A DNA stretch of 16,834 nucleotides from Thermoproteus sp. (lineage in GTDB: Archaea > Thermoproteota > Thermoprotei > Thermoproteales > Thermoproteaceae), in assembly GCA_049976425.1 (NCBI GenBank), contig JBMFIG010000030.1, positions 1 to 16,834 of the forward strand. The letters run 5' to 3'. The stretch's first letter is position 1, and each line of letters begins with the position of its first letter. The notes beneath the pieces were generated by a model. It ran no database searches. It saw nothing but the letters and a program-made list of their open reading frames with translations, and was not told the DNA's origin. Below are positions 1 through 16,559 of this stretch, piece after piece. The position numbers and the translations under genes were made by a program.

Positions 1-879
1 CTCGCCTGTCACCTCCTCCCTCTTGGGAGCTATGGCGGCTATCTCGTCGATAAAGATAATCGCGGGCGCGTTCTTCTTAGCCTCGTCGAATATCTCCCTA
101 AGCTTCGCCTCAGACTCCCCATAGTACTTCGACATAATCTCGGGACCATTAATAGCGATAAAGTACGCATTAGCCTCGTTAGCAACAGCCTTAGCCAAGA
201 GGGTCTTGCCGGTGCCGGGAGGGCCGAACAGAAGGATGCCTTTCGGCGGCTCTATGCCTAGGTGCTTGAACAGCTCTGGATGTCTTAGAGGAAGCTCCAC
301 CAACTCCCTAATCTTCTGCTTAGCCTCCTCCAAATCGCCGATATCCTCCCAAGTCACGGGAGGTATCTTGACGCCGGAGACCGGCTTCTCGTACAGCTGT
401 ATCTGGGTGTCGTCGGTCACTAGGAGGACGGCGTTGGCCGGGCGGGCCTGCACCACCTGGAACGTCAAGGGCTGGCTCAACACGTATATCTGGAGTATGT
501 CGCCCTCTACGAGGACGTAGTCGCGGAGCCTCTGTTTTATGTACTGCAGGAAGTTGGAGTCGACGGCTATGGTCATGGAGACCGGCGCCAGCTTCACCGA
601 CTGGGCCGGCCTCGGCTCGACCTTCCTTATCCTGACCGTCTCGTTGAGGGAGACGTCGGCGTTCTTCCTCAGTATGGAGTTCATGCGGATTATGCCCTTG
701 CCGCGGTCCTCGGGGAGGCCGTTCCACACCTTGGCGGCCGTCCTCCTCCTCCCCATGATCTCCACCACGTCGCCCACCATTATGCCGTGGCGCTCCATCA
801 CGTCGGGATCTATACGCACTATGGGCCTATTCGCGTCGCGCGCCTTGCTCTCGGCCACTCTGAGCTCTACCCAACTCAC
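1..879 (-). CDS. cdc48: CDC48/VCP-family AAA+ ATPase, N-terminal part (runs off the window edge)
   Basis: Manual translation from GTG at 879: [33 protein letters not shown]...[83 protein letters not shown]...IIFIDEID. This gives the N-domain, Walker A and Walker B. Absent from the ORF track because no stop lies in the window. TATA-like TTTTTATA at 900-907 on the minus strand. Confidence 0.97.
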
Positions 880-1228: not shown

Positions 1229-1426
1229 CTAAGGCCCCTCGAACCCGCAGACCGGGCACTTGTAGGATATGCCCAGCTTCCTCGCCTTGTAGCTCCTGAT
1301 TATGGTGGACCTGCCGCAGTTGGGGCAGACGAACTCGACCCCCCTCTCCAGCGGGGCCAGCGTCCAGTTAGTCATCGTGTCGCTCGGCGGAGACGGCCCG
1401 TACAGCTTGGCGCCCCTAATCGACAT
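1229..1426 (-). CDS. Small Zn-ribbon protein (COG2888/DUF1610-like, usually adjacent to EF-1beta)
   Basis: FVCPNCG...YKCPVCGFEGP C-terminus. Start moved to ATG at 1426 (MSIRGAK) because ATATAAA begins 28 nt upstream. Confidence 0.88.
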   Translation of the reverse strand: MSIRGAKLYGPSPPSDTMTNWTLAPLERGVEFVCPNCGRSTIIRSYKARKLGISYKCPVCGFEGP

Positions 1427-1511
1427 GCCACCCCTCGACAAGCCCCATTTATATGCTTTATGCGTCGGGCGGCGCTCCGTCAAACTTTATTATCCGTCTC
1501 CACCCGCCCCT
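1427..1511. promoter_or_regulatory. Divergent promoters of the Zn-ribbon and S9 peptidase genes
   Basis: ATATAAA (minus, 1448-1454) and TTTATTA (plus, 1486-1492). Confidence 0.7.
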
Positions 1512-3215
1512 ATGGATCTGCTGGCGGCCAGGCTCCTGTCCGTCAAGAGCGCCGTGGCGCCCTCGGCGGGGCCCGACGGGGCGGTGCTGTACCTCTCTGA
1601 CGCGACGGGGCAGTACCAGATATGGCGTTTCGACGGTAGGCGGCACGACGTCTACATCCCCTGGGACGGGAGGGTGGGGGGATACGTCGTCTCCCCGAAA
1701 GGCGCGGTGGCCTTCTCCGCCGACGTGGGGGGCGACGAGCGTTGGAGGATCTACGTAGCCGAGGGCGAGGAGGTGAGGGACGTGTCCGTCGAGGGCTTCA
1801 ACAACCTCGGCGCGTGGAGCCCCGACGGCTCGCGGCTCGCGTACACCTCTACCGTCGAGAGGCCGGAGGACTTCTCCCTCTACGTCTTCGAGGGCGGCGG
1901 GGCCCGGAAGGTCGCCGACCTGCAGGGGATAAACATAGCCGTGGACTGGTGCGACGAGGGGATATTGGTGGAGCACCACGAGTCGAGCAGAGACGGCGAC
2001 ATCTATCTGGCTTCCGGCGGGGAGGTCAAGAATCTGACTAAGCACTCTGGCGAGGAGGTCAACGCGTCGCCGCGATGTCTCGGCGGGGGCAAAATCGCAT
2101 ATCTGACCGACAGATGGTCGGAGTATAGGGGGATCGCCGTCATGGATCTGAAGACGGGCGAGGCGAAGCCCCTAGTCCAGCTGGACAGAGAGATAGAGCT
2201 CTTCGACGTCTGGGGCAACTACCTCGCATATGTGGCCAACGAGGACGGCTACTCCGGCCTGTACGTGATGCACCTCCCGACGGGCCTTACGCACAAGGTG
2301 TCCGTCCCGCCGGGCGTCGTCACCTATCTGAGCTGGCGATTCGGGAAGCTCGTCTTCTCGCTGTCGGGCCCTCGGGTCGGCCACGAGGTTTTCGTCTACG
2401 CGGGCGAGGTCAGGGCGCTCACCGACTCGCCGAAGTACGGCGTCGATATGTCGAGGAACGCCGTGCCGGAGGCCGCAAGGTTCAAGGCAAGCGATGGGCT
2501 GGAGGTTCCGCTCCTGCTGTATAGGCCGCAGACGGCTCCTCCCCACAAGGCGGTCTTCCTACTGCACGGGGGGCCCGAGAGCCAGGCGAGGCCCTACTTC
2601 GAGCCCCTGACGCAGCTTCTGGTCAGGCTCGGCTACATGGTCGTCGCCCCCAACTTCAGAGGATCGACGGGCTACGGCAAGACCTACGTGAGGCTGGACG
2701 ACGGCGAGAGGAGGCTGGACGCCGTGAGGGACGTGGCCGAGGCCGTCGGCTGGCTCGCCGGCCGGGGGCTGATCGCCGGGAGGCCTTGCGTGTTGGGAGG
2801 GGGCTACGGCGGATATCTGACGTTGATGTCCCTGGCGCTTTACCCAGACCTCTGGACCTGCGGCGTCGAGATGGCCGGGATAGTGAACCTCGCCACGTTC
2901 CTCGAGAGGACGGCTCCCTGGCGGAGGCGGCACAGAGAGGCTGAGTACGGCAGGTTGGAGGACAGAGAGCTTCTGGCCAAGCTCAGCCCGATAACCTACG
3001 CCGATAGGATAGCCGCGCCTCTGTTGGTGATACACGGCGTGAACGACATAAGGGTCCCCGTCTCCGAGGCCGACCAGCTCGTGGCGAGGCTGAGGGAGCT
3101 GGGCCGGCGCGTCGAGTACTTGAGGCTGGAGGGCGAGGGCCACGTCTTCTCGTCGGCCGCCAGGCCCAGGATATACGGCGAAGTGGCCAAGTTCGTGAAG
3201 GCCTATCTAGGCTGA
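1512..3215 (+). CDS. S9/prolyl-oligopeptidase family (acylaminoacyl-peptidase-like) protein; nucleophile Ser position reads Gly
   Basis: Beta-propeller-like N-region (WSPDGSRLAY), LHGGPESQ, NFRGSTGYG, GGGYGG in place of GxSYGG, HGVNDIRVP (Asp), EGEGH (His). Start ATG 1512 lies 26 nt after TTTATTA. Confidence 0.9.
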   Translation: MDLLAARLLSVKSAVAPSAGPDGAVLYLSDATGQYQIWRFDGRRHDVYIPWDGRVGGYVVSPKGAVAFSADVGGDERWRIYVAEGEEVRDVSVEGFNNLGAWSPDGSRLAYTSTVERPEDFSLYVFEGGGARKVADLQGINIAVDWCDEGILVEHHESSRDGDIYLASGGEVKNLTKHSGEEVNASPRCLGGGKIAYLTDRWSEYRGIAVMDLKTGEAKPLVQLDREIELFDVWGNYLAYVANEDGYSGLYVMHLPTGLTHKVSVPPGVVTYLSWRFGKLVFSLSGPRVGHEVFVYAGEVRALTDSPKYGVDMSRNAVPEAARFKASDGLEVPLLLYRPQTAPPHKAVFLLHGGPESQARPYFEPLTQLLVRLGYMVVAPNFRGSTGYGKTYVRLDDGERRLDAVRDVAEAVGWLAGRGLIAGRPCVLGGGYGGYLTLMSLALYPDLWTCGVEMAGIVNLATFLERTAPWRRRHREAEYGRLEDRELLAKLSPITYADRIAAPLLVIHGVNDIRVPVSEADQLVARLRELGRRVEYLRLEGEGHVFSSAARPRIYGEVAKFVKAYLG

Positions 3216-3251: not shown

Positions 3252-4148
3252 ATGATTCCCCAGAAGGGGAAGGAGCTACTATCGGCGGTGAGGCCCGTCT
3301 GGGTCGAGACCGTGTCTTGGCACAGCTCCCTCGCCATGCAGATAGAGGGGATTAGGTACATGAAGCGGACCAGGTACCAGGAGCTGGCCATAATAGACAC
3401 GGTGGATTTCGGCAGGGCGTTGGTGCTCGACGGCTTTATCCAGTCCACGTACGCCGACGAGCCCTACTACCACGAGTCCCTGGTCCACCCCGCCATGGTG
3501 GCGCACCCGTCGCCGAGGAGGGTCCTCATCTTGGGAGGCGGCGAGGGGGCCGCGCTTAGGGAGGTGCTGAAGCACAAGACCGTGTCGGAGGCGGTCATGG
3601 TCGACATAGATGGGGAGGTCGTGGAGGCGGCCAAGGAGTATCTGCCGGCCATGCACCAAGGCGCGTTTAAGGACCCGCGGGCCAAGGTGTTGATAATGGA
3701 CGGGGCCAAGTACGTCGAGGACGCCTTGGCGCGGGGGGAGAAGTTCGACATAGTCGTGATGGATCTGACAGATCCCTACGGCCCCGAGATAGCGCAGGGC
3801 CTCTACTCTGCGCAGTTCATCGGCAAGGTCAAGGGGGTTATGGCCGACGGCGGCGTCTTCGTGACGCAGGCGGGCAGTAGCTTCTTCTTCGAGGAGGAGT
3901 ACGACGCGGTGTTGAGGAACGTGTCGGCGAATTTCCGCATAGTGGTCGAGTACACCGTGTGGATACCCTCGTTCGGCTACGCGGTCAACTTCATAGCGGC
4001 CAGCGACTCGGCCGATCCCAGAGCGCTGACCGCTGAGGAGGTCGACAAGACGCTCGCCGAGAGGGGCGTCTCGACCGTGTTCTACTCCGGCAGAGCCCAC
4101 GTGGCGCTTATGAACATGCCGATATATAGGAGGTTCAAGAGGGCTTAG
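3252..4148 (+). CDS. speE: Polyamine aminopropyltransferase (spermidine/thermospermine synthase family)
   Basis: LVLDGFIQST, YHESLVHP, LILGGGEGAALREVLKH, VDIDGEVV and DLTDP motifs; TTATATA 27 nt upstream. Confidence 0.95.
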   Translation: MIPQKGKELLSAVRPVWVETVSWHSSLAMQIEGIRYMKRTRYQELAIIDTVDFGRALVLDGFIQSTYADEPYYHESLVHPAMVAHPSPRRVLILGGGEGAALREVLKHKTVSEAVMVDIDGEVVEAAKEYLPAMHQGAFKDPRAKVLIMDGAKYVEDALARGEKFDIVVMDLTDPYGPEIAQGLYSAQFIGKVKGVMADGGVFVTQAGSSFFFEEEYDAVLRNVSANFRIVVEYTVWIPSFGYAVNFIAASDSADPRALTAEEVDKTLAERGVSTVFYSGRAHVALMNMPIYRRFKRA

Positions 4149-5385: not shown

Positions 5386-6792
5386 ATGCAGGTATCTCCC
5401 ATTGTCAGCTATTCGACAGTTAGGGAGGTCAAGGGCCCTCTGCTCGTCATAGAGAGGACCCGGGGGGTTGCCTACGGCGAGCTGGGCGAGGTGGTGGGGC
5501 CCGACGGGGAGCCCCGCCGCGTCCAGGTCATCGAGGTGGGCACGGACTACGCCGTGGCGCAGGTCCTAGGCCCCACCCTCGGCCTCCCCGCCAAGGGATC
5601 GACTGTTAGGTTCTACGGCAAGACCTACAGGCTGGGCGTCAGCGAGGACCTAATAGGCCGTATCCTCGACGGCAAGGGGCAGCCGCGCGACCACATGCCT
5701 CTGCCGCCGCCCCAGGACTTCAGGGACATCAACGGCGAGCCCCTCAACCCCTACGCCCGCGAGTACCCCGAGGAGCCCATAGAGACCGGCATATCGGCCA
5801 TAGACGGGCTCTACACCCTCGTGAGGGGCCAGAAGCTGCCCATATTCTCGGGCACCGGCCTGCCGCACAACGTCATGGCGGCGCAGGTGGTGAGGCAGGC
5901 GACTGTGAGGGGGAGCGAGGAGGGCTTCGCGGTGGTCTTCGTCGGAATCGGCATCAGGAGCGAGGAGGCGATGTACTTCATGGACGAGTTCAGGAGGACG
6001 GGCGCTCTGAGGAGGGCGGTCGCCGTCATAAACCTCGCCTCCGACCCCGTGGCGGAGCGCATCCTGGCGCCCCGCGTCGGCTTGACCATAGCGGAGCACC
6101 TCGCCTGGGATCTCGGCTACCACGTGCTGGTGGTCATAACCGACATGACCAACTACGCCGAGGGCCTCCGCGAGCTCTCGTCGGGCAAGGGCGAGCTCCC
6201 CGGCAGGCGCGGCTACCCGGGCTATATGTACACCGACCTGGCGAGTATATACGAGAGGGCCGGAAGGGCTAGGGGGCGCAAGGGCTCCGTCACGCAGTTC
6301 CCCATACTCACCATGCCGCACGACGACATAACCCACCCCATACCCGACCTCTCGGGCTACATCACCGAGGGACAGCTGGTGCTCAGCCGCGCCATGTGGG
6401 GCAAGGGCATCTACCCGCCCTTCGATATAATAATGTCGCTCTCGCGCCTCGCCAAGGACGCCATCGGCGAGGGCAAGACGCGCGAGGACCACAAGGACGT
6501 GGCGAACACGCTCATCGCCGCCTACAGCCGCGCCCTGGAGCTGAGGAGCTTGGCCACTCTGGTGGGCGAGCGCAACTTGGGCTGGCGCGAGAGGAGGTAC
6601 CTCCGCTTCGCCGACGCCTTCGAGCAGAAATTCGTCAAGCAGGGGGTCTACGAGAGGCGGACCTTCGAGGAGACGCTTGACATAGGGTGGGACGTGCTCT
6701 CGATACTGCCGGAGGACGAGCTGACCAACGCCAGGCCGGAGATATCGGCAAAGTACTACCGCAAGCACATCTTCGAGTCGGTGGCCCTCTAG
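5386..6792 (+). CDS. atpB: A/V-type ATP synthase subunit B
   Basis: [48 protein letters not shown] and [18 protein letters not shown] motifs; own TATA at 5358-5365. Confidence 0.98.
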
Positions 6793-7126: not shown

Positions 7127-8605
7127 GTGGCCTTGGTCTCGCCCCTGGAGTACGCGATATTGAGGTCGGCCGGGCGGCGGAGGAGCTTGAGGGAGGTCGC
7201 CGCCGAGCTGGGGACGAAGCCCGAGGACCTCATGAGGTACGTCGAGTCTCTGAGGGCCAGAGGGCTGATACGCGTCGAGCGGCGGGAGGTCGAGGTCTAC
7301 GAGCTGACGGAGGAGGGGGCCAAATACGCGAGGGAGGGGTTGCCCGAGCTTGCGGCTCTGAGGGCCGCCAAATGCGGCGATATATGCGTCGTCGAGGTGC
7401 CGGACACGCCAGAGGGGAGGATAGTCCTCGCCAACCTGGCCAGATACGGACTGCGCCCCCGCGGCGGGAGGATCGAGGCGCCGAGAGACGAGGTCGAGAA
7501 GGCGCTTAGGGCCGTCGAGGAGAGGCAGAGGCTCCTCGAGGCCTTGGCCGCGGGCGGGGAGATACCGCGCGACGCCTTGCAGGAGTTCCAGAGGAGGAGG
7601 CTGGTGAGGAGGTCGTCGCGGGTGGAGATCTATGTGGAGTCTGCGGCGGACCTCGCGTCGTTGCGGGTTGCCGAGATGAAGACCGCGCTCACCTCCGAGG
7701 ATCTGAGGAGCGGGGCCTGGAGGGAGATCGTCCTCAAGCCCATAGACGCGACGATAGAGGTGCCTCCCGCCCCGGCCCCCGTCCCCCACTTCTTCCAAGA
7801 TTTCCTGGAGTACGTGAGGGAGGTCATGGTGGGGCTCGGCTTCGAGGAGGTGAGGGGGCCGATCCTCGAGTACGAGTTCTGGAACTTCGACGCGTTGTTC
7901 CAGGCGCAGGACCACCCGGCCAGGGAGGTCCACGACACGTTCTTCGTGGAGTGGGGAGGACGGCCGCCGGAGCCGCCTCCACCGGAGCTCATGGAGAGGG
8001 TGGGGAGGGAGCACGAGGCCGGCTGGGGCTACCGCTGGAGCCGCGAGAAGGCCCTCGGCCTGGTCTTGAGGAGCCAGACCACTGCGACGACCATAAGGGC
8101 GCTCGCCGAGAGGGGTGAGGGGACCTACAAGGTCTTCGCAGTAGGGAGGGTCTTCAGGCCGGAGCACATAGACGCCAAACACAACGTGGAGTTCCACCAG
8201 CTCGACGGGATAGTGGTGGGGCCGGGGCTCGCCTTCAAGCACCTGTTGGGGCAACTGGAGCAGATAGCGAAGGCCCTAGGCATGGCCGAGGTTAAGTTCA
8301 AGCCGGCCTACTTCCCGTTCACCAGCCCCTCCGTGGAGGTCTACGCGAGGCACGAGAAGCTGGGCTGGATCGAGTTCGGCGGCGCCGGGATATTCAGGCC
8401 AGAGGTGACGCGCCCCCTCGGCGTCGAGAGGAGCAGAGTCCTCGCCTGGGGCTGGGGCCTCGACAGAGTCGCCATGATACTGCTGGGCATAGAGGACATA
8501 AGGGACCTCTTCACGGCCGATCCCGAGAAGCTCGCCGAGTACTACCGCAGATGGAGCGCCTTCAAGAGGACGGTGGGCTCGCGGGGGGCGAGGTATACGC
8601 TGTAG
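7127..8605 (+). CDS. pheS: Phenylalanyl-tRNA synthetase alpha subunit (archaeal long form)
   Basis: FWNFDALFQAQDHPARE, LRSQTT, GRVFRPE, EFHQLDG, PAYFPFTSPS and AWGWGLDR motifs; N-terminal winged-helix extension. Confidence 0.97.
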   Translation: MALVSPLEYAILRSAGRRRSLREVAAELGTKPEDLMRYVESLRARGLIRVERREVEVYELTEEGAKYAREGLPELAALRAAKCGDICVVEVPDTPEGRIVLANLARYGLRPRGGRIEAPRDEVEKALRAVEERQRLLEALAAGGEIPRDALQEFQRRRLVRRSSRVEIYVESAADLASLRVAEMKTALTSEDLRSGAWREIVLKPIDATIEVPPAPAPVPHFFQDFLEYVREVMVGLGFEEVRGPILEYEFWNFDALFQAQDHPAREVHDTFFVEWGGRPPEPPPPELMERVGREHEAGWGYRWSREKALGLVLRSQTTATTIRALAERGEGTYKVFAVGRVFRPEHIDAKHNVEFHQLDGIVVGPGLAFKHLLGQLEQIAKALGMAEVKFKPAYFPFTSPSVEVYARHEKLGWIEFGGAGIFRPEVTRPLGVERSRVLAWGWGLDRVAMILLGIEDIRDLFTADPEKLAEYYRRWSAFKRTVGSRGARYTL

Positions 8606-9008: not shown

Positions 9009-9841
9009 CTAACGCCGCGCTACCTCCAGCACGGCCTCCGCTATGGCGCCGGCGACGTCGACGCCCGTCACCCTCTGGACGTTCTTGAATTCGGGCACGC
9101 CGTTGACCTCCAGCACCTTGTAGCCGTCCCTCGACTCGACGACGTCGATCCCCGCGTACATCACGCCGACGGCCTCCGCGGCTTTGACCGAGATCTCCTC
9201 CAGCTCGCCGTCTATCTCGACGGGCTCCGCCTTGCCGCCTCTGGCCGTGTTGGTGCGCCAGTCCGACGACGAGTATCTGTATATCGCCGCGACGGCCCTA
9301 CCAGCCACCACGGTCACCCTTATGTCCCTCCCCGGCTTCTCCACGTATTCCTGCACCAGGAACTCCTGCATCGAGGACTCGAGGTGCCTCTTGTGGGCGA
9401 CTATCGACGCAAGGTCGTCGGGCGACTTGGCGAGGCTGACGAGCCTCCCCCAGGAGCCGTCCAGAGGCTTCACTATGACGGGGTAGCCGAGGGCCTCGGC
9501 CGCCTTGAGGGCGGGCTCGAGGCCGAACGCCAGAGCCGTCCTGGGCGTGGGGACGCCGACGCGTCTAAGGGCTAGATAGGTCAGGTACTTGTCGTGGGAT
9601 ATATATAGCGACTGGGCCGAGTTTATAGATACGCCGCCGGCCGCCTCGTAGGTGTGGGCCAGCGGGAGGACCTTGGACCTCCCCGCGACTCTTATAAGGC
9701 CCACGAGGCCCAGCCCGTCGGGCGCGGCGAGGTTCTCGGCGTCTACAAGCCTCACGGAGGCGTTGCGCCTCTTTAGCGCGTCTAACAGCAACCGCTCGTC
9801 GAGCCTCAGCAGGTCGTAGACGAAGTCGATTTCCCCGACAT
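9009..9841 (-). CDS. lysX: LysX alpha-aminoadipate--LysW ligase (RimK/ATP-grasp family); needs a -1 frameshift near codon 3-4
   Basis: KPLDGSWGRLV, VQEYVEKPGRDIR, AIYR, WRTNTARGG and EVNGVPEFKNV motifs (NV suggests LysX rather than ArgX-type GF). The conserved N-terminus IDFVYDLLRLDERLL has no in-frame start before an upstream TAA. ATG 9841, 28 nt after TTATAAA, is out of frame (span 833 nt = 3n+2). Confidence 0.88.
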
Positions 9842-9862
9842 CGCCGTCTGGAGGCGCCGGCC

Positions 9863-9870
9863 TTTATAAG
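9863..9870 (-). promoter_or_regulatory. TATA box of lysX
   Basis: CTTATAAA on the minus strand; TTATAAA begins 28 nt before ATG 9841, the same spacing as other genes in the window. Confidence 0.8.
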
Positions 9871-9871
9871 C

Positions 9872-11149
9872 TTATTGTTGACAGATAGAGAGCTTCTCCT
9901 TAGCCGAGTTCCTAACCCTCTCGGGGTCGGGGGAGCCCAACACGGGCCTCCTCACGGCCTCGCGGGGGTCCGGAAGGTCGGCGGAGCCCGCCTTCACCGC
10001 CTCGGCGGTCTTGAAGTAGGCCTCTCTGAAGGGGACGCCGCTGAGCGCCAGCCTCTCCGCGGCGTCCGACGACGTCGTGGGGTACCTCTTGGCGTCTTGG
10101 TAGGCCTTGTCGCAGTTGAACCTCATGCCCTCCAGGAAGCTCCTCAACACGGCGACGCCCTCCTCGGCGGTCTTGAACACGCGCCAGAGGTGCCGCGTCG
10201 CCTCCTGGAGGTCGAGGCTGTAGCCGTACCCTATCTTTTCCTGGACCGCTAGGAGGGCCGAGGCGTCCGCCACCGCCTCGGATATACGGGCTCTCAAGAC
10301 CTCGAGAGTCACGGGGTTCCTCTTGTGCGGCATTATGCTGCTGGTAGATACGTGTTCGGCGGGCGGCTCCACGTAGCCCAACAACGGGCTGGACCAGGCC
10401 ACCAGATCGTCCACGAACCTCGAGAGCTCGGCGAGGGCCGAGGCCACGACGGACGCCGCGAGGCTTGCGAAGAAGCGGCTCGACGAGGCGTACAAAGTGT
10501 TCTCGACGACGCCGCCGAAGCCCGCCAGCTGGGCCAGCCTCCTGCGGTCCAGCGGGGCCGTGGTGCCGCCGGAGGGCCCCGAGCCTAGAGGCGACTTGTC
10601 GACGATAGGCCTAACCGCCGAGAGGGCTGAGAGGAGGTCGGACAGAAGCTCGTAGAGGGCGAGGAGGTAGTGGCCGAAGGTTATGGGCTGGGCCGGCTGG
10701 AAGTGGGTGAAGGAAGGCATGACGCAGTCGGCGTATTCCGCCGCGCGGCGCGCCGCGACGCACATGAGGCCCTTGACCTCTCTGGACAGATCGTCCATGT
10801 GGCGCAGGAGCCTCAGCCTTATGGCGGCCGCCACGTGGTCGTTCCTGCTCCTGCCGAGGCCGACCCAGCCCCCGGCGGGCCCCACCTTCCTGATGAGGTA
10901 GTCCTCGAGGGCCTCGTGGACGTCCTCGTAGCCCGGCCTCAGGAGATCCTCGACGCGGACCTCCCCCAACGCCTCGAGCACGGCCTCCCCGTCGCCCCTC
11001 GGCACAAGGCCCGCCTCGGCCAAATGGGCCGCGTGGGCCTTCATGACCTCAACCACCTCCCTCGCTATCTCGGCGTCGTCCTGGATGCTGGAGGTGTACC
11101 CGGCCACCACGTCGCTCGAGCCCCCGATCCATCTCCTGTAGAGGGCCAT
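9872..11149 (-). CDS. argH: Argininosuccinate lyase
   Basis: GRSRNDHVA, MPSFTHFQPAQPITFGH and SSIMPHKRNP (fumarase/ASL signature); TATTTATA 27 nt upstream. Confidence 0.96.
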   Translation of the reverse strand: MALYRRWIGGSSDVVAGYTSSIQDDAEIAREVVEVMKAHAAHLAEAGLVPRGDGEAVLEALGEVRVEDLLRPGYEDVHEALEDYLIRKVGPAGGWVGLGRSRNDHVAAAIRLRLLRHMDDLSREVKGLMCVAARRAAEYADCVMPSFTHFQPAQPITFGHYLLALYELLSDLLSALSAVRPIVDKSPLGSGPSGGTTAPLDRRRLAQLAGFGGVVENTLYASSSRFFASLAASVVASALAELSRFVDDLVAWSSPLLGYVEPPAEHVSTSSIMPHKRNPVTLEVLRARISEAVADASALLAVQEKIGYGYSLDLQEATRHLWRVFKTAEEGVAVLRSFLEGMRFNCDKAYQDAKRYPTTSSDAAERLALSGVPFREAYFKTAEAVKAGSADLPDPREAVRRPVLGSPDPERVRNSAKEKLSICQQ

Positions 11150-11245
11150 GTGGGCCCGGAGCCCCGGCTATAAATACGCGCCGCCTGCCAATATATTATC
11201 GAAAATAGCGCGAAAGACTTATATATGTCAAATGTCGTAGAGGCG
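11150..11245. promoter_or_regulatory. Divergent argH/carA promoter region
   Basis: TATTTATA (minus strand, 11169-11176) for argH; GAAAGAC-TTATATA (BRE-TATA-like, 11212-11225) for carA. Confidence 0.78.
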
Positions 11246-12321
11246 ATGTCCCAGGGGCGAACCACAGGGCCTACCTCGTCCTCGAAGACGGGACAGTCCT
11301 AAAAGGCAGGGCGTTCGGCGCAGAGAAGACGGCTGTCGGCGAGGTCGTCTTCACGACCGCCGTCGTCGGCTATCCGCAATCCATCACGGACCCCAGCTAC
11401 AAGGGGCAGATACTGGTCTTCACCCACCCGCTCATCGGCAACTACGGGGTCTCGGAGGACCAGTACGAGTCCGACGGGCCGCAGGCCGAGGCCGTGGTCG
11501 TCCACGAGGCGACGCGGCCGAGCCACTACAAGGCGGTCATGTCCCTCGACGAGTGGCTGAAGGCTTCCGGCGTGCCGGGGATAGAGGGGGTGGACACGAG
11601 GGCTCTCGTCCTCAAGCTGAGGGAACACGGCGTCATGATGGGGGCCGTCGGCCAGGAGCCCCCCGACGAGTTGCTGGAGAAGGTGAGGAAGTCGCCGAAG
11701 TACGACGAGGTGAACTACGCCTTGATGGTCTCGCCTAAGGAGCCCGAGGAGCTCGGCGACGGGAAGATCTGCGTGGGGGTCGTGGACTGCGGCGTCAAGA
11801 GGAGCATACTGAGGGAGCTCGTCAAGAGGGGGGTCAGGGTCTTGAGGGTGCCTTGTCTGAGGTGGGAGCTGGCGCTCAAGTGCGACGCGGTGCTCTTCAG
11901 CCCAGGCCCCGGCAACCCCAACCTGCTGGATAGGGTGGCAGAGGGAGTCAAGGCGGCGGTGGAGATGAGGCTCCCCGTAATGGGCATATGTCTAGGCCAC
12001 CAAGTGGTGTCCAAGGCGCTCGGCGCGAGGCTGTACAAGCTGAAGTTCGGCCACCGCGCCTCCAACAAGCCGGTCAGAGACTTGGCCTTCACCGGCAAGA
12101 CCTACATAACCACGCACAACCACGGATACGCTGTCGATCCGGCCGGGAGCGGGCTGAGGCCGTGGGCCGTACAGCCCGACGACGGCACCGTGGAGGGGCT
12201 CTACCACCCAGACCTGCCTATCCTGACGACACAGTTCCACCCAGAGGCGGGGCCAGGCCCGAGAGACACGACGTGGGTATTCGACAAGTTTCTAAAGATG
12301 GTCGGAAACGGCCTCCGCTAG
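11246..12321 (+). CDS. carA: Carbamoyl-phosphate synthase small (glutaminase) subunit; needs a -1 frameshift near codon 4-5
   Basis: The frame of ORF 11494-12321 extends upstream as RAYLVLEDGTVLKGRAFGAEKTAVGEVVFTTAVVGYPQSITDPSYKGQILVFTHPLIGNYG (canonical CarA N-terminus) with no in-frame ATG/GTG/TTG after an upstream TAG. ATG 11246, 27 nt after TTATATA, is out of frame (span 1076 nt = 3n+2). Catalytic GICLGHQ and QFHPE are intact. Confidence 0.93.
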
Positions 12322-12599: not shown

Positions 12600-12660
12600 A
12601 GAAGAATGGCCGAAGTCTAGGATAAAAATTTTATGTTATATTTAGTGTGTCTAGCGGAAT

Positions 12661-12715
12661 ATCCGCCCCCGTTTCTAGTCCGAAATACGTATCGGGCCGG
12701 ATCTCGGCGGCGGAT
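12661..12715. repeat. Long imperfect inverted repeat (hairpin) in the intergenic region upstream of fusA
   Basis: ATCCGCC(12661-12667) pairs with GGCGGAT(12709-12715), CCG with CGG, and GTCCGA(12678-12683) with TCGGGC(12692-12697), around an 8-nt loop. Confidence 0.6.
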
Positions 12716-12749
12716 TAAATGTTTTTATATCGATGCCTCACTGCCTCGC

Positions 12750-14972
12750 ATGTCCAGCGTCGTCAGGATAGTCGAGAAGCAGCTGGACGAGATCTTGGCC
12801 ATAGCTAGGAACCCCGCCCAGATACGGAACGCCGGCACCCTCGCCCACGTGGACCACGGCAAGACAACCACGTCCGACTCGCTCCTCATGGGCGCCGGCC
12901 TCCTCTCGCCGAAGGTGGCGGGCAAGGCTCTTGCGATGGACTACGTCGAGATAGAGCAGTTGAGGCAGATGACGGTCAAGGCGGCCAACATATCGCTGTA
13001 CTTCGAATACGGCGGCAAGCCGTATCTCATAAACTTCGTCGACACGCCGGGACACGTCGACTTCACGGGACACGTCACGCGATCCCTCAGGGTCATGGAC
13101 GGAGGCCTCGTCGTCGTCGACGCCGTGGAGGGCGTCATGACGCAGACCGAGACCGTGGTCAGACAGGCGCTGGAGGAGTACGTGAGGCCCGTCCTCTTCA
13201 TCAACAAGATAGACCGCTTGATAAAGGAGCTTAGGCTCTCGCCGCAGGAGATCATGCAGAGGATACTGACAATAGTGAAGGAGTTCAACTCCCTTATAGA
13301 CATGTTCGCCCCGCCCGAGTTCAAGGACGCGTGGAAGGTGGACCCGGGCAAGGGCCAGGTTGCCCTCGGTTCGGCCCTACACAAGTGGGGCGTGACCATA
13401 CCCATGGCCCAGAAGACCGGCCTCAAGTTCAGCAACATCGTCGACGCATACGAGAAGGGCTACGTGGACAAGCTGGCGACCGACTACCCGCTCTACAAGA
13501 CCCTCCTGTCGATGATAATTGAGCACGTCCCGCCGCCCAACGTGGCCCAGAAGTACAGGATACCGAGGCTCTGGAGAGGCGACCTCAACAGCGAGGTAGG
13601 CAAGGCCCTCCTCGAGGCGGACCCCAACGGGCCCACGGTCATTGCGGTCAGCAAGGTCAACGTGGACCCGCACGCCGGCCTCATCACGACCGGCCGCGTC
13701 TTCTCGGGGACCATAAGGGAGGGCGACGAGGTATACATAATCGGCGCCAAGTCCAAGAGGAAGGTCCTCCAGACCTACATCTACATGGGCCCGTCCCGCA
13801 TAGTGGTGCCCTACATGCCGGCCGGCAACATAGTGGCGTTGCTAGGCACCGACGACGCGAGGGCCGGCGACACCATCGTGGCGGCCAACTTCAGCAACAT
13901 ACCGCCGTTCGAGCGCATGAAGTACATATCGGAGCCGGTGGTCACCGTGGCGATAGAGCCCAAGAACCCCGCCGACCTGGCCAGACTTGTGGAGGCCCTC
14001 AAGGAGCAGGTCATCGAGGACCCGACCCTCGAAGTAAAGATAGACCAGGAGACCGGCCAGATACTGCTGTCGGGCGTCGGCACGCTCCACCTGGAGATAG
14101 CCACGTGGATGCTCAAGGAGAGGACCAAGATAGACTTCACCGTGTCGCAGCCGTTGATAAGGTTCCGCGAGGCCGTTAGGGCCAGATCCGACGTGTTCGA
14201 GGGCAAGTCGCCCAACAAGCACAACCGCCTCTACTTCTACGTGGAGCCTCTCGACGACACGACGATAGAGCTCATAGCGACGCGGGAGATAACCGAGGAG
14301 ATGGACCCGAGGGACCGCGCCAAGATATTGAGGGAGAAGGCCGGATGGGACACGGACGAGGCGAGGGGCATCTGGGCCATAGACGACCGCTACTTCAACG
14401 TCCTCGTCGACAAGACCTCCGGCATACAGTACCTCCGCGAGATCAGGGACTACATAGTGCAGGGATTCCGCTGGACCACCGAGGCGGGCCCGCTGGCCCA
14501 GGAGCCGATAAGAGGGCTCAAGGTCGTGTTGACCGACGCCGTAGTCCACGAGGACCCGGCCCACCGCGGCCCCGCCCAGATAATGCCCGCCACCAAGAAC
14601 GCCATATTCGCCGCCATCCTATCGGCGAAGCCGACCCTCCTGGAGCCCCTCCTGAAGCTCGACATCAAGGTGCACCCGGACTACATAGGCGCCATCACGT
14701 CGGTCCTCAACAAGCATAGGGGCAAGATACTGGACATGACCCAGGAGGAGTACATGGCCATGATAAGGGCCGAGTTGCCGGTCCTGGAGTCCTTCACCAT
14801 AAGCGACGAGCTACGCGCGGCCGCCGCCGGCAAGGTCTTCTGGTCCATGCAGTTCTCCAGATGGTCGCCGGTGCCCGAGGCGATGCTGGCCGACCTCGTG
14901 AAGCAGATACGCAAGAGGAAGGGCCTCAAGGAGGAGATACCGAAGCCCACCGACTTCATCGAGGCCCTCTAA
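12750..14972 (+). CDS. fusA: Archaeal translation elongation factor 2
   Basis: AHVDHGKTT, DTPGHVDF, NKID and the diphthamide loop HEDPAHRGPAQI; true start ATG 12750 (MSSVVRIVEK), 28 nt after TTTTTATAT. Confidence 0.98.
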   Translation: MSSVVRIVEKQLDEILAIARNPAQIRNAGTLAHVDHGKTTTSDSLLMGAGLLSPKVAGKALAMDYVEIEQLRQMTVKAANISLYFEYGGKPYLINFVDTPGHVDFTGHVTRSLRVMDGGLVVVDAVEGVMTQTETVVRQALEEYVRPVLFINKIDRLIKELRLSPQEIMQRILTIVKEFNSLIDMFAPPEFKDAWKVDPGKGQVALGSALHKWGVTIPMAQKTGLKFSNIVDAYEKGYVDKLATDYPLYKTLLSMIIEHVPPPNVAQKYRIPRLWRGDLNSEVGKALLEADPNGPTVIAVSKVNVDPHAGLITTGRVFSGTIREGDEVYIIGAKSKRKVLQTYIYMGPSRIVVPYMPAGNIVALLGTDDARAGDTIVAANFSNIPPFERMKYISEPVVTVAIEPKNPADLARLVEALKEQVIEDPTLEVKIDQETGQILLSGVGTLHLEIATWMLKERTKIDFTVSQPLIRFREAVRARSDVFEGKSPNKHNRLYFYVEPLDDTTIELIATREITEEMDPRDRAKILREKAGWDTDEARGIWAIDDRYFNVLVDKTSGIQYLREIRDYIVQGFRWTTEAGPLAQEPIRGLKVVLTDAVVHEDPAHRGPAQIMPATKNAIFAAILSAKPTLLEPLLKLDIKVHPDYIGAITSVLNKHRGKILDMTQEEYMAMIRAELPVLESFTISDELRAAAAGKVFWSMQFSRWSPVPEAMLADLVKQIRKRKGLKEEIPKPTDFIEAL

Positions 14973-15008: not shown

Positions 15009-15227
15009 TTAGCCCACCCTCCCGGCCCCCAGCTCCCTCCTCCCCCTCGCGCCTTCGTTGTGGCGCGCCACGGCCTTCCTGACCTCCTCGGCCGACCCTG
15101 ACGCTATAACCGAGGCCCTCTCCAGATCTATCCTCGCCCCGCAGAACGGGCATACGTGCGACTTTGCGCCGGATCTGGCCGCGCTCGCCATGCCGCAACG
15201 GGGACAGACGACCGCCAGATACCTCAT
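15009..15227 (-). CDS. Small Zn-ribbon protein (CPRCG...CPFCG; DUF1922-like)
   Basis: Two CxxCG motifs; ATG overlaps the coaBC stop (ATGA), indicating translational coupling. Confidence 0.75.
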   Translation of the reverse strand: MRYLAVVCPRCGMASAARSGAKSHVCPFCGARIDLERASVIASGSAEEVRKAVARHNEGARGRRELGAGRVG

Positions 15228-16435
15228 CGCCCAAGCGCCTTGACGGCTCTGTCGAGGACAGCCCGCGCGAGCTCCCTCTTGTGGGCAGGCCCCAGCCTCT
15301 CGACCCTCCCGTCGCTATATATCGCTATGTACTGGTCCTTGAGCGTGCCGAAGCCCAGCCCCGAGACGTCGTGGGCGAGGACGAGATCCCAGCCGCCCTC
15401 CTCCATCCTCGCCCTGGCCCTTCTCAAGAGCTCCTCCTCCGATACGCCGTACTCCGCCTTGAAGCCCACGATATAGGCCTTGGGGTTCAGCCGCCTGGCC
15501 TCGGCCGCTATCTTCGGCGCTCTGAGGAGCCTCACGGTGTACTCGGCCACGTCGCTACTGATCTTCCCCGGCGCCCTCTCCGCCACGTAGAAATCCAGAG
15601 GAGCCGCCGCGAAGACCATGAGGTTCTGCGAGGGCGCGAGCTCGGCCACCGCCCTATACATGTCGAGGACCGACACCACGGGCACGGCCTTGACGTTCGG
15701 AGGCGCCTTGACGCCGGGGCCCGCCACCAGCGTCACCTCGGCCCCCCTGGCCGCCGCCTCCCTGGCAAAGTATATACCTGTGAGGCCGGAGCTCGGCGTA
15801 GATATGTATTTTATGTCGTCGATATGCTCGTGGGTGGGCCCCGCCGTGACGAGGACCCTCAGCCCCGACATGTCGCGGGGGGCCGACGCGTCTATCACAG
15901 ACTCGGCCACCTCCTCCACCTCCGGGTACTTAGCCTTCCCCTCCTCGATCTTCGGCTCCACCACCAAAACCCCCCAAGACCTCAGCCTAGAGAGGGCCTC
16001 CTGGAGGGCCGGGTTACGCCACATGGCTAGGTTCATCGTCGGCACGAACACCGACCGGGCCCCGGCTCCCAGAGCCGCGTGTATGCACGTGGTCGCCACG
16101 TCGTCGGCTATGCCCAGAGCGGCCTTGGCCACAGTGTTTGCCGTCGCGGGGGCGACGACCAGCAGGTCGGCCCTCGCGCAGACAGAGACGTGCTCGGCCC
16201 TCCCCGTCAGCCTGGAGACGGCCCTCCTCCCCGTAGCCCACCTAAACAGCTCGGGGCTCACGAGGCGCGCCGCCTTGTCCGACAAGACGGCGGTGACGTC
16301 GGCCCCGTGCCTAATTAAGAGCCGGGCGAGGTCTATAGACCTATATAGCGATATCCCCGAGGTAACTGTTAAGACGACCGACTTGCCGTCCAGAAGATGT
16401 GAGTAGGAATACCTAATCGGCTCGACCTCCGCCAC
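15224..16435 (-). CDS. coaBC: Bifunctional phosphopantothenoylcysteine decarboxylase/synthetase (Dfp)
   Basis: VVAPATANTVAK, PTMNLAMW, VLVTAGPTHEHID, SSGLTG and VGFKAE motifs. Start placed at GTG 16435, 26 nt after TTTTTAA (16455-16461). Confidence 0.95.
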   Translation of the reverse strand: MAEVEPIRYSYSHLLDGKSVVLTVTSGISLYRSIDLARLLIRHGADVTAVLSDKAARLVSPELFRWATGRRAVSRLTGRAEHVSVCARADLLVVAPATANTVAKAALGIADDVATTCIHAALGAGARSVFVPTMNLAMWRNPALQEALSRLRSWGVLVVEPKIEEGKAKYPEVEEVAESVIDASAPRDMSGLRVLVTAGPTHEHIDDIKYISTPSSGLTGIYFAREAAARGAEVTLVAGPGVKAPPNVKAVPVVSVLDMYRAVAELAPSQNLMVFAAAPLDFYVAERAPGKISSDVAEYTVRLLRAPKIAAEARRLNPKAYIVGFKAEYGVSEEELLRRARARMEEGGWDLVLAHDVSGLGFGTLKDQYIAIYSDGRVERLGPAHKRELARAVLDRAVKALGR

Positions 16436-16559
16436 GACGCCATAAGGGAGCCGGTTAAAAACCATGCCCCAGCCAGTATCAGTCGATCGTAAGAAATATA
16501 TTTACTTGATATTTCTATATTTATCTTATCTCTATATAGCGTAAACTGTTTAAAAACAC

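Follow-up and report, generated by a model that had tools for sequence, protein, structure and literature searches.

Why do two biosynthetic genes of one archaeal contig start with an ATG that does not open the reading frame of their enzyme? The question is raised by lysX and carA in a 16,834-nucleotide (nt; ~16.8 kb) stretch of DNA from Thermoproteus sp., referred to here as the window, which is the whole of contig C30 of a draft genome (the window genome; 1.84 Mb in 96 contigs, 60% G+C). An earlier note on the window had proposed that both genes are controlled by -1 ribosomal frameshifting at a G-GGG sequence, the next codon, AAA (Lys) or CGA (Arg), sensing the end product of the pathway. 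To our knowledge, the regulation of amino-acid synthesis in hyperthermophilic Crenarchaeota with leaderless mRNAs is largely an open matter; such mRNAs have no room for riboswitches, T-boxes or attenuators. From the anatomy of the loci, its conservation among relatives and the match between codon and gene function throughout the window genome, all of which are observed, we conclude that these elements are very probably switches that act in translation, on leaderless mRNAs, each gauging how much of one charged tRNA is available.

The lysX gene lies on the minus strand. Its promoter contains a TATA-like box (9863..9869) ~28 nt upstream of an ATG (9839..9841), which is the spacing of a leaderless mRNA, and this ATG is out of frame with the enzyme. 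In the ATG frame (the 0 frame), the sequence reads ATG TCG GGG AAA followed by seven more codons, that is, 11 sense codons in all, and this dead-end open reading frame (ORF) terminates at TGA (9806..9808). The slip site, G-GGG (9833..9836), is invariant in 17 genomes, and the sensor codon AAA (Lys; 9830..9832) would occupy the ribosomal A site at the moment of slippage, when the P-site glycine tRNA on GGG at 9835-9833 could re-pair on 9836-9834. The LysX frame, -1 relative to the ATG, extends from the re-paired GGG to the stop codon at 9011-9009 (9009..9836). It is open from 9863 and contains no ATG, GTG or TTG before the TTG at 9791, which falls within the conserved N-terminal strand of the protein. 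Judged by its match to TIGR02144 (LysX_arch, an equivalog model; 321.4 bits against a cutoff of 275.6, residues 12-284), the product is assigned as LysX, the ATP-grasp ligase of LysW-dependent lysine biosynthesis, with LysX distinguished from ArgX by the family model only.

Located on the plus strand, carA has a TATA-like box (11219..11226) ~27 nt upstream of its leaderless-type ATG (11246..11248), and this ATG too is out of frame with the enzyme. The 0 frame, ATG TCC CAG GGG CGA onward, comprises 18 codons and ends at TAA (11300..11302). It contains the slip site G-GGG (11254..11257), followed by the sensor codon CGA (Arg; 11258..11260). The CarA frame (11254..12321), again at -1, ends at the stop codon 12319-12321; it is open from 11209 to 12321 and has no in-frame start before 11494. 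The product contains the small-chain domain PF00988 (171 bits) and the class-I glutamine amidotransferase domain PF00117 (146 bits), and its nearest database proteins carry matching names; it is accordingly annotated here, by homology, as CarA, the small subunit of carbamoyl-phosphate synthase. For both genes, the layout given in the earlier note (a TATA-spaced ATG, a dead-end ORF, a G directly 5' of the 0-frame GGG and the enzyme in the -1 frame) proved exact to the nucleotide.

Two further observations concern the carA start. A second ATG (11225-11227), in the same frame, is found 21 nt upstream of the first; it is unlikely to be on the mRNA because it lies within the TATA box itself. In addition, the N-termini of public CarA records of relatives (Thermoproteus and Pyrobaculum by source; P0003, P0004, P0007, P0008, P0010, P0014 and P0016) disagree with one another, being placed upstream within the promoter, at non-canonical codons or so far downstream that the conserved first beta-strand is truncated. 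These discordant starts look like mis-annotation caused by the frame change, implying that recoding has not been recognised in annotation.

Is the arrangement retained by relatives? We searched 30 related genomes with the LysX and CarA proteins, and the 5' ends of the genes were extracted, compared and then scored by an automatic rule, which requires a 0-frame ATG within 33 nt, a G before GGG or GGA in the frame that places the enzyme at -1, and an enzyme frame open up to the tblastn anchor. The family of the window genome comprises 19 genomes from three genera (g1, g2 and g3), several of them single-contig. The lysX arrangement with AAA is found in 17 of the 19 (9/9 in g1 and 8/8 in g3), and an in-frame ordinary start is present in the two g2 genomes as well as in the 10 sister-family genomes that yielded a lysX locus. 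The carA arrangement with CGA is found in all 19 family genomes, with GGGGCGA invariant throughout. Thus, the out-of-frame ATG, the G-GGG and the cognate codon are kept by relatives, as the earlier note would have it. A TAA stands immediately 5' of GGG GCG in the carA enzyme frame of five g3 genomes, and therefore a change of frame is only possible on the G run itself. Furthermore, alignment of the relatives revealed that the residues following the lysX junction are conserved as protein while the DNA changes are synonymous, indicating that this region is translated.

The same anatomy recurs elsewhere in the window genome. We scanned both strands for four features together. The ATG had to have an A/T-rich 8-mer whose first base lies 25-34 nt upstream; the 0-frame ORF could be no longer than 40 codons; four identical bases in a row had to occur in the first nine codons, so placed that a P-site codon can re-pair at -1 or +1; and the shifted frame had to stay open over 100 codons or more. 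No use was made of the codon that follows the slip site. The -1 motifs gave 30 rows for G (28 distinct ATGs), 10 for A, 9 for C and 4 for T, and the +1 motifs gave 10 for G, 8 for A, 5 for T and 2 for C. According to NCBIfam and Pfam searches, 15 of the 28 -1 G sites belong to amino-acid or tRNA-ligase genes. Two are followed by AAA (lysX and the gene for a homocitrate synthase with a RAM domain), one by CGA (carA), one by ACA (thrC), one by TTC (the prephenate dehydratase gene pheA) and three by TGG (trpE, the trpB-like gene trpB2 and the Trp-tRNA ligase gene). The sensors are ATT for the Ile-tRNA ligase, ATC for citramalate synthase (cimA), CTC for isopropylmalate synthase (leuA), TGT for the Cys-tRNA ligase and TGC for a cysteine-synthase-like enzyme of the pyridoxal-phosphate-dependent type that scores below family cutoffs. 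The remaining two have several sensors: the gene for the large subunit of acetolactate synthase (ilvB) carries GTC, CTC and ATC at tandem sites, and that for a transketolase N-subunit at the head of an aromatic cluster (contig C3, locus L062) carries TAC, then TGG. A 16th -1 G site, with AAA, CCA and CGA, precedes the gene for a 223-residue protein that belongs to no Pfam or NCBIfam family (contig C4, L063). Both +1 C hits are genuine genes, namely, hisG (CCC CAT) and proC (CCC CCA), the latter scoring below the NCBIfam cutoff and matched by Pfam P5CR_dimer.

A third form was found upstream of carB (contig C34, L076; also L331), where ATG TCG GCG GGG CGA ATA TAG constitutes a 6-codon leaderless ORF. 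The -1 frame of this leader is 28 codons long and ends just past the ATG of carB, which suggests frameshift-dependent translational coupling between the putative leader and the gene. We also considered carB as a +1 frameshift gene and rejected this assignment, given that it has its own ATG 78 nt downstream of the 6-codon leader ORF. In the window genome carB is apart from carA; in four other genomes of a six-genome panel (the window genome and five relatives) it directly follows carA. Downstream of carB is a LysX paralogue (40% identity), possibly ArgX. Counting the +1 and leader-ORF forms, the window genome has ~19 device loci. The enzyme frames of its frameshift genes contain no ATG, GTG or TTG on the stretch that leads from the preceding stop to the slip site. 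The genome scan for further switches that the earlier note had called for was thus productive; its description covered the -1 form only, which stands, and has to be extended by a +1 form at CCC C (hisG, proC) and by the leader-ORF form (carB).

How well does the codon match the gene? The sensor specifies the cognate amino acid in 16 of the 16 genes with an unambiguous end product. With amino-acid frequencies taken from 863 long ORFs of the window genome, the joint probability of such a match is 1.8e-23, the expected amino acids being textbook assignments fixed from the pathway after the genes were seen. When sensors were shuffled among the genes, the mean number of matches was 2.06 and the maximum 11, with none of 200,000 shuffles reaching 16. 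Codon usage, computed from the same 863 ORFs, agrees with the claim of the earlier note that AAA and CGA are rare: AAA accounts for 15% of Lys codons, and CGA, at 2%, is the rarest Arg codon. Altogether, 7 of the 13 sensor codons used are minor ones (ACA 9%, ATT 6%, CCA 5%, CAT 21% and TGT 25% in addition to the two above).

For the other loci, conservation in the 19-genome family was determined by the automatic rule together with reading of the alignments. The pheA device is present in 19/19 genomes, two of them with GGA, and CCC CAT of hisG likewise in 19/19. Altogether, GGA instead of GGG follows the G at five loci, namely, pheA in two g2 genomes and carA in three g4 genomes. For trpE, the device is found in 9/9 g1 genomes; in g2 and g3, trpE lies inside an operon and starts normally. 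Among the tRNA ligases, the Trp enzyme has the device in 16/17 loci, the Ile enzyme in 8/8 g1 and 7/8 g3 genomes (the eighth g3 genome reads GTG GGG ATT) and the Cys enzyme in 7/8 of the g1 loci that include the 5' end and in 0/8 in g3. In the six-genome panel, the sensors of leuA, homocitrate synthase, cimA and the trpB-like gene are each present in 6/6 genomes, that of the cysteine-synthase-like gene in 5/6 and that of proC in 5/5 loci found.

The tandem sites vary between genomes. In ilvB, the Val and Leu sensors are present in 19/19 genomes and the Ile sensor in 9/9 g1 and 4/8 g3 genomes, and in thrC the Thr sensor (17/19) is accompanied by an additional Ile sensor in 6/8 g3 genomes. The aromatic leader (L062, also L355-L358) has Tyr and Trp sensors in 5/6 panel genomes, and in two relatives a Phe sensor is added, so that all three aromatic end products are represented. 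Such multi-sensor arrays fit branched pathways, with one site per end product. The gene for the 223-residue protein (L063, also L326-L329) has its three sensors in 5/6 panel genomes, g1 having the order Lys-Pro-Arg and g3 the order Pro-Lys-Arg; their presence predicts that this protein shares a putative role in Lys, Arg and Pro synthesis; a protein atlas search with it returned only weak RimK/ATP-grasp leads (0.91). Between genomes, sensors change synonymously in the ATG frame (GTC/GTT/GTA, CTC/CTT, ATC/ATT, ACA/ACG, TGT/TGC, TTC/TTT and TAC/TAT), and the same changes alter the residue in the enzyme frame. Therefore, the target of selection is the amino acid that a codon specifies in a reading frame closed by a stop a few codons downstream. 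Five non-cognate sites detected in family loci under the automatic rule (L033, L044, L090, L173 and L174) are at odd positions and are not conserved.

We propose the following mechanism. The ribosome would start at a 5'-terminal AUG, read 0 to 4 codons and then GGG, at which point a glycine tRNA would be in the P site and the A site would display the codon for the pathway's own amino acid. As long as the corresponding aminoacyl-tRNA is plentiful, reading would continue in frame to the nearby stop, and only a peptide of 4 to 23 residues would be made. When it is scarce, the A site would stay empty and the glycine tRNA could slip back by one base onto the overlapping GGG, after which a codon beginning with G would be read and the enzyme made in the -1 frame. 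In the +1 variant (hisG and proC), a proline tRNA would slip on CCC-C before a His or Pro codon, and in the leader variant the device would act from a short ORF ahead of carB. Tandem sites would implement OR logic for several amino acids (Val, Leu and Ile for ilvB; Tyr, Trp and Phe for the aromatic leader), and on tRNA ligase genes the switch would be a feedback loop on charging itself.

Several features of the loci bear on this proposal. The TATA-ATG spacing is 25-31 nt across loci, as is typical of leaderless archaeal mRNAs, and the only start codon downstream of each TATA box is the out-of-frame ATG. P-site re-pairing is possible throughout, a G preceding GGG at every -1 site and a C following CCC at every +1 site, and at most four codons precede the slip site on the apparently leaderless mRNA. 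Downstream RNA structure shared among the loci was not detected when the 55 nt after the G run were folded for 14 genes (z from -1.8 to +1.3, relative to mononucleotide shuffles and with folding that excludes pseudoknots); the absence of such a structure, which one-tRNA slippage with a vacant A site does not require, is consistent with that mode of slippage. It is from sequence comparison that we infer that the mRNAs are leaderless, that it is the ribosome that shifts and that shifting rises on starvation; within the reach of such comparison, the interpretation given in the earlier note is supported, its computational checks having all turned out in its favour.

A number of observations nevertheless weigh against such switches. 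Forty ordinary genes have G-GGG among their first 8 codons, in most cases with a common codon after it. Five sensor codons are themselves common (TAC 76%, TTC 89%, CTC, GTC and TGC), and therefore codon rarity is not the rule. Ordinary starts are found in g2 for lysX, thrC and the Trp- and Ile-tRNA ligases; carA has an in-frame GTG GTG in g2 and, in 2 genomes, an ATG one codon before the conserved strand; and in hisG of g2 and g3 the +1 frame opens with ATG, directly behind CCC C. At loci with an in-frame start, ordinary initiation may add to slippage or replace it. In g1 hisG, the position of this ATG is occupied by ATA, and two genomes are without any following canonical start, which argues that the slip is used there. 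Moreover, slippage on G-GGG in bacteria is usually low when no stimulator is present, and here the essential Ile-, Trp- and Cys-tRNA ligases sit behind an unaided G-GGG; the basal efficiency of the slip would therefore have to be substantial. Finally, the glycine tRNA itself was not among the tRNAs found by ARAGORN in the window genome (13, then 28 with introns allowed), a miss taken to be due to non-canonical introns.

Could the arrangement, then, be explained in some other way? The simplest account would be that the frame changes are sequencing or assembly errors or that the genes are decaying pseudogenes. The window does come from a 96-contig draft, and homopolymers are error-prone, but the same frame layout is present in up to 19 genomes of three genera, single-contig genomes included, and the downstream coding sequence is intact and conserved. 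The earlier note had suggested testing for sequence error at both sites and had pointed out that longer G runs of the window are in frame; indeed, the G6 runs at 1676-1681 and 5462-5467 are present and lie within intact ORFs, and a separately assembled metagenome contig spans 9700-11400 with 14 substitutions and no gaps, although it is perhaps from the window's own sample and has little weight beside the cross-genome evidence. Error and pseudogene decay are ruled out by the conservation and the gap-free contig, and their probability is negligible. The arrangement of lysX and carA is confirmed to be real, and it is far beyond chance because it is conserved across genera and recurs genome-wide with matching codons. 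A change of frame made in the RNA, by transcriptional slippage or RNA editing, would add a G in G4 or remove a C in C4 and bring the ATG into frame. One extra G would yield the same protein, and polymerase slippage near transcript starts is known in bacteria; however, runs of four are short for it, opposite events would be required at G runs and C runs, and the cognate codon would have no role, making this explanation extremely unlikely.

Two other explanations were considered. A programmed frameshift might be constitutive, with a slip at G-GGG occurring at a fixed rate that sets expression and the next codon not being a sensor. Fixed-ratio frameshifting is common in other systems, according to a 2016 review (PMC5009743), and the slip site itself is invariant. 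Nonetheless, a fixed rate leaves unexplained why the next codon is cognate in 16/16 genes, why sensors change only synonymously in the 0 frame and why branched pathways have one site per end product, and we regard it as very unlikely. Alternatively, the short ORF might encode a stalling leader peptide, with the enzyme started independently in the frame that encodes it, either non-canonically or by re-initiation, and the stall at the sensor codon controlling access or mRNA fate. The ATG of carB behind such a leader, the ATG at the hisG site in g2 and g3, the sister-family mini-ORFs with a stop overlapping the main ATG (see below) and the non-canonical starts assumed by public annotations all agree with it. 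Yet at most loci there is no start or near-start in the enzyme frame from the TATA box to the conserved N-terminus, any such start would be hidden under a ribosome stalled at codon 2-6, and the strict occurrence of G before GGG, or of C after CCC, is not accounted for. A stalling leader with separate initiation is thus unlikely, both as to how the enzyme would be started and as to what the stall would control.

If these loci are sensor-gated switches, how do they compare with known systems? An A-site codon read by a product that is itself under control, slow reading of which lets the P-site tRNA slip and the full protein be made, is the principle of prfB, which encodes bacterial release factor 2 (RF2). 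Both share direct feedback, here on tRNA ligase genes, and an early in-frame dead end. In prfB, a protein factor reads the sensor, which is a stop codon, the +1 shift takes place at CUU U with the help of a Shine-Dalgarno-like stimulator, and a single gene is concerned, whereas the devices described here would use sense codons for at least 14 amino acids, mostly at -1 G-GGG, on leaderless mRNAs and in a whole regulon. Feedback of the prfB type is apparent in the sensors of the Ile- (ATT/ATC), Trp- (TGG) and Cys-tRNA ligases (TGT/TGC), biosynthetic genes having the end-product codon; +1 CUU U with a Shine-Dalgarno-like stimulator was not seen at these loci. The prfB frameshift is named in PMC3711429 and PMC6028130.

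Slippage at hungry codons is closer in its mechanics. Leftward frameshifting at such codons was reported in E. coli (Gallant and Lindsley 1992, as cited in PMC8211752), and the citing 2021 review (PMC8211752) describes how one tRNA slips while the A site is vacant because an aminoacyl-tRNA is limiting, a process for which no stimulatory structure is needed. The likeness lies in the slip of one P-site tRNA at a vacant A site without a downstream stimulator (PMC8211752); the difference is that hungry-codon frameshifting is known as an error or from laboratory constructs, whereas here it would be a conserved, selected regulatory device. Its natural role is called unclear in the 2016 review (PMC5009743). 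In Archaea, the 2021 review calls the -1 frameshift of Saccharolobus solfataricus fucA the only one reported (PMC8211752). It resembles the present cases in joining two frames into one enzyme, but the fucA site is internal, concerns one glycosidase gene and has no sensing role. As for leaderless transcription, the first description came from Pyrobaculum (Slupska 2001, as cited in PMC6028130). A canonical -1 frameshift was considered and rejected for these loci: there is no X XXY YYZ heptamer, the sensor codon varies so that only the P-site codon can re-pair, and the 14-gene folding gave no stimulatory hairpin 5-9 nt downstream.

In function, the nearest counterparts are bacterial. Leader-peptide attenuation, as in the trp, his, ilv and thr operons, likewise uses a short ORF with end-product codons through which the ribosome reads charged tRNA, and multivalent leaders serve branched pathways there as well (Val, Leu and Ile for ilv). 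The bacterial leader needs terminator and antiterminator hairpins, whereas here the coding frame of the enzyme and the leader ORF overlap, each amino acid is represented by a single sensor codon and not by a run of them, and the output would be a change of reading frame in the same ribosome passage. No terminator-like site was detected in 9700-11400, and no Rfam model matched at gathering score anywhere in the window, be it a leader family or a T-box. T-box riboswitches of Gram-positive bacteria similarly form a regulon of tRNA ligases and biosynthetic genes, each answering to the charging of its own tRNA, but they are structured leader RNAs that bind uncharged tRNA, and in the present case there is neither a leader nor an Rfam match. 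In the +1 frameshifts of Ty1 and antizyme, a slow A-site codon (the rare AGG of Ty1) or a metabolite sets the rate (polyamines for antizyme, PMC5009743); these are eukaryotic single genes and have no link to the amino acid that the regulated gene produces. Full-text searches returned no description of the system, with most subscription journals and all supplements (including that of GeneTack, PMC3711429) outside their scope, and the word 'frameshift' is absent from the Thermoproteus tenax genome paper. In logic the proposed switches follow prfB autoregulation and attenuation, in physics hungry-codon slippage and in the make-up of the regulon T-box control, but they cannot be assigned to any of these families. 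Regulatory frameshifting with a sensor codon is a kind of mechanism already known, and for the scale and design seen here no described precedent was found.

What would these switches mean for the organisms? We consider it likely that Thermoproteus- and Pyrobaculum-like archaea run amino-acid homeostasis largely through a frameshift code that can be read from the genome. It is also probable that nearly every separately promoted biosynthetic operon, together with several tRNA ligase genes, would start with a leaderless mini-frame, and there is a good chance that this mini-frame generally consists of a slippery Gly or Pro codon and then a codon for each controlling amino acid. Such a system would be an archaeal counterpart of attenuation and T-boxes and the first natural regulon to use sense-codon-gated (hungry-codon) slippage as a sensor, and it would raise the number of archaeal -1 frameshift cases from one (PMC8211752) to dozens per genome. 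Sensors readable from DNA would predict the regulating amino acid and hence the likely function of unknown genes: they would assign the 223-residue protein to Lys/Arg/Pro synthesis and separate LysX-type from ArgX-type paralogues. For annotation, the consequence is that public records of device genes are truncated or start within promoters. The ~19 loci of one genome offer natural test cases with built-in controls (synonymous swaps, tandem sensors and genera without the device), and compact amino-acid-specific translational switches working at 85-95 °C are possible parts for synthetic biology.

The other -1 G hits of the scan, 12 sites, are chance-like or fall outside the family assignment, which left out five of them (C1(+)172965, C12(+)34052, C3(-)94310, C32(+)7725 and C5(-)63203) and also L080. 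Among the scan hits set aside, two (C12(-)1841 and C38(+)7746) have low-complexity translations, as judged by eye, and C5(+)20594 was set aside for its in-frame GTG start. C5(+)31531 is a proteasome beta subunit gene with its own ATG just downstream, and C1(-)245327 encodes an alcohol dehydrogenase whose domain begins at residue 49. A metallo-beta-lactamase (C52(-)355), a cation efflux protein (C22(+)8622) and an ABC ATPase (C15(+)11098) have no amino-acid link. Family searches gave no match for L075, L077, L079, L145, L146, L152, L153 and L154.

The window contains eight further genes, all without a switch device. These encode, from left to right, a CDC48-type ATPase (1-879, minus strand), a peptidase/esterase-like beta-propeller protein (1302-3215), spermidine synthase (3252-4148), the B subunit of an A-type ATP synthase (5386-6792), the alpha subunit of Phe-tRNA ligase (7127-8605), argininosuccinate lyase (9872-11149, minus strand), elongation factor 2 (12633-14972) and CoaBC (15224-16465, minus strand). 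The argininosuccinate lyase gene, between lysX and carA, has an ordinary leaderless ATG.

Outside the family of the window genome, other arrangements are found at the same genes. In the sister family, hisG (L205-L211), thrC (L175-L180) and carA (L050-L052) have their own ATG. A TATA-spaced mini-ORF, 5-8 codons long, lies ahead of it and ends in a stop that overlaps this main ATG; one cognate codon (His, Thr or Arg) is found 2-3 codons before the stop. The carA version has the motif G GGA CGA, with the main frame at -1. These mini-ORFs may be a related sensing device, and the cognate codons in them suggest that the principle is older and wider than its -1 form. Further conserved odd starts likewise contain a cognate codon. 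In genus g6, carA (L053-L056) begins ATG ATT CGG; the enzyme is encoded at +1, in a frame that has no start of its own. Two tRNA ligase genes of the sister family have conserved sequences of their own, namely, TT ATT GAT T after GGTG in the gene for the Ile enzyme (L285-L296; 10/10 genomes) and TT ATC TGG in that for the Trp enzyme (L229-L237; 9/10 genomes).

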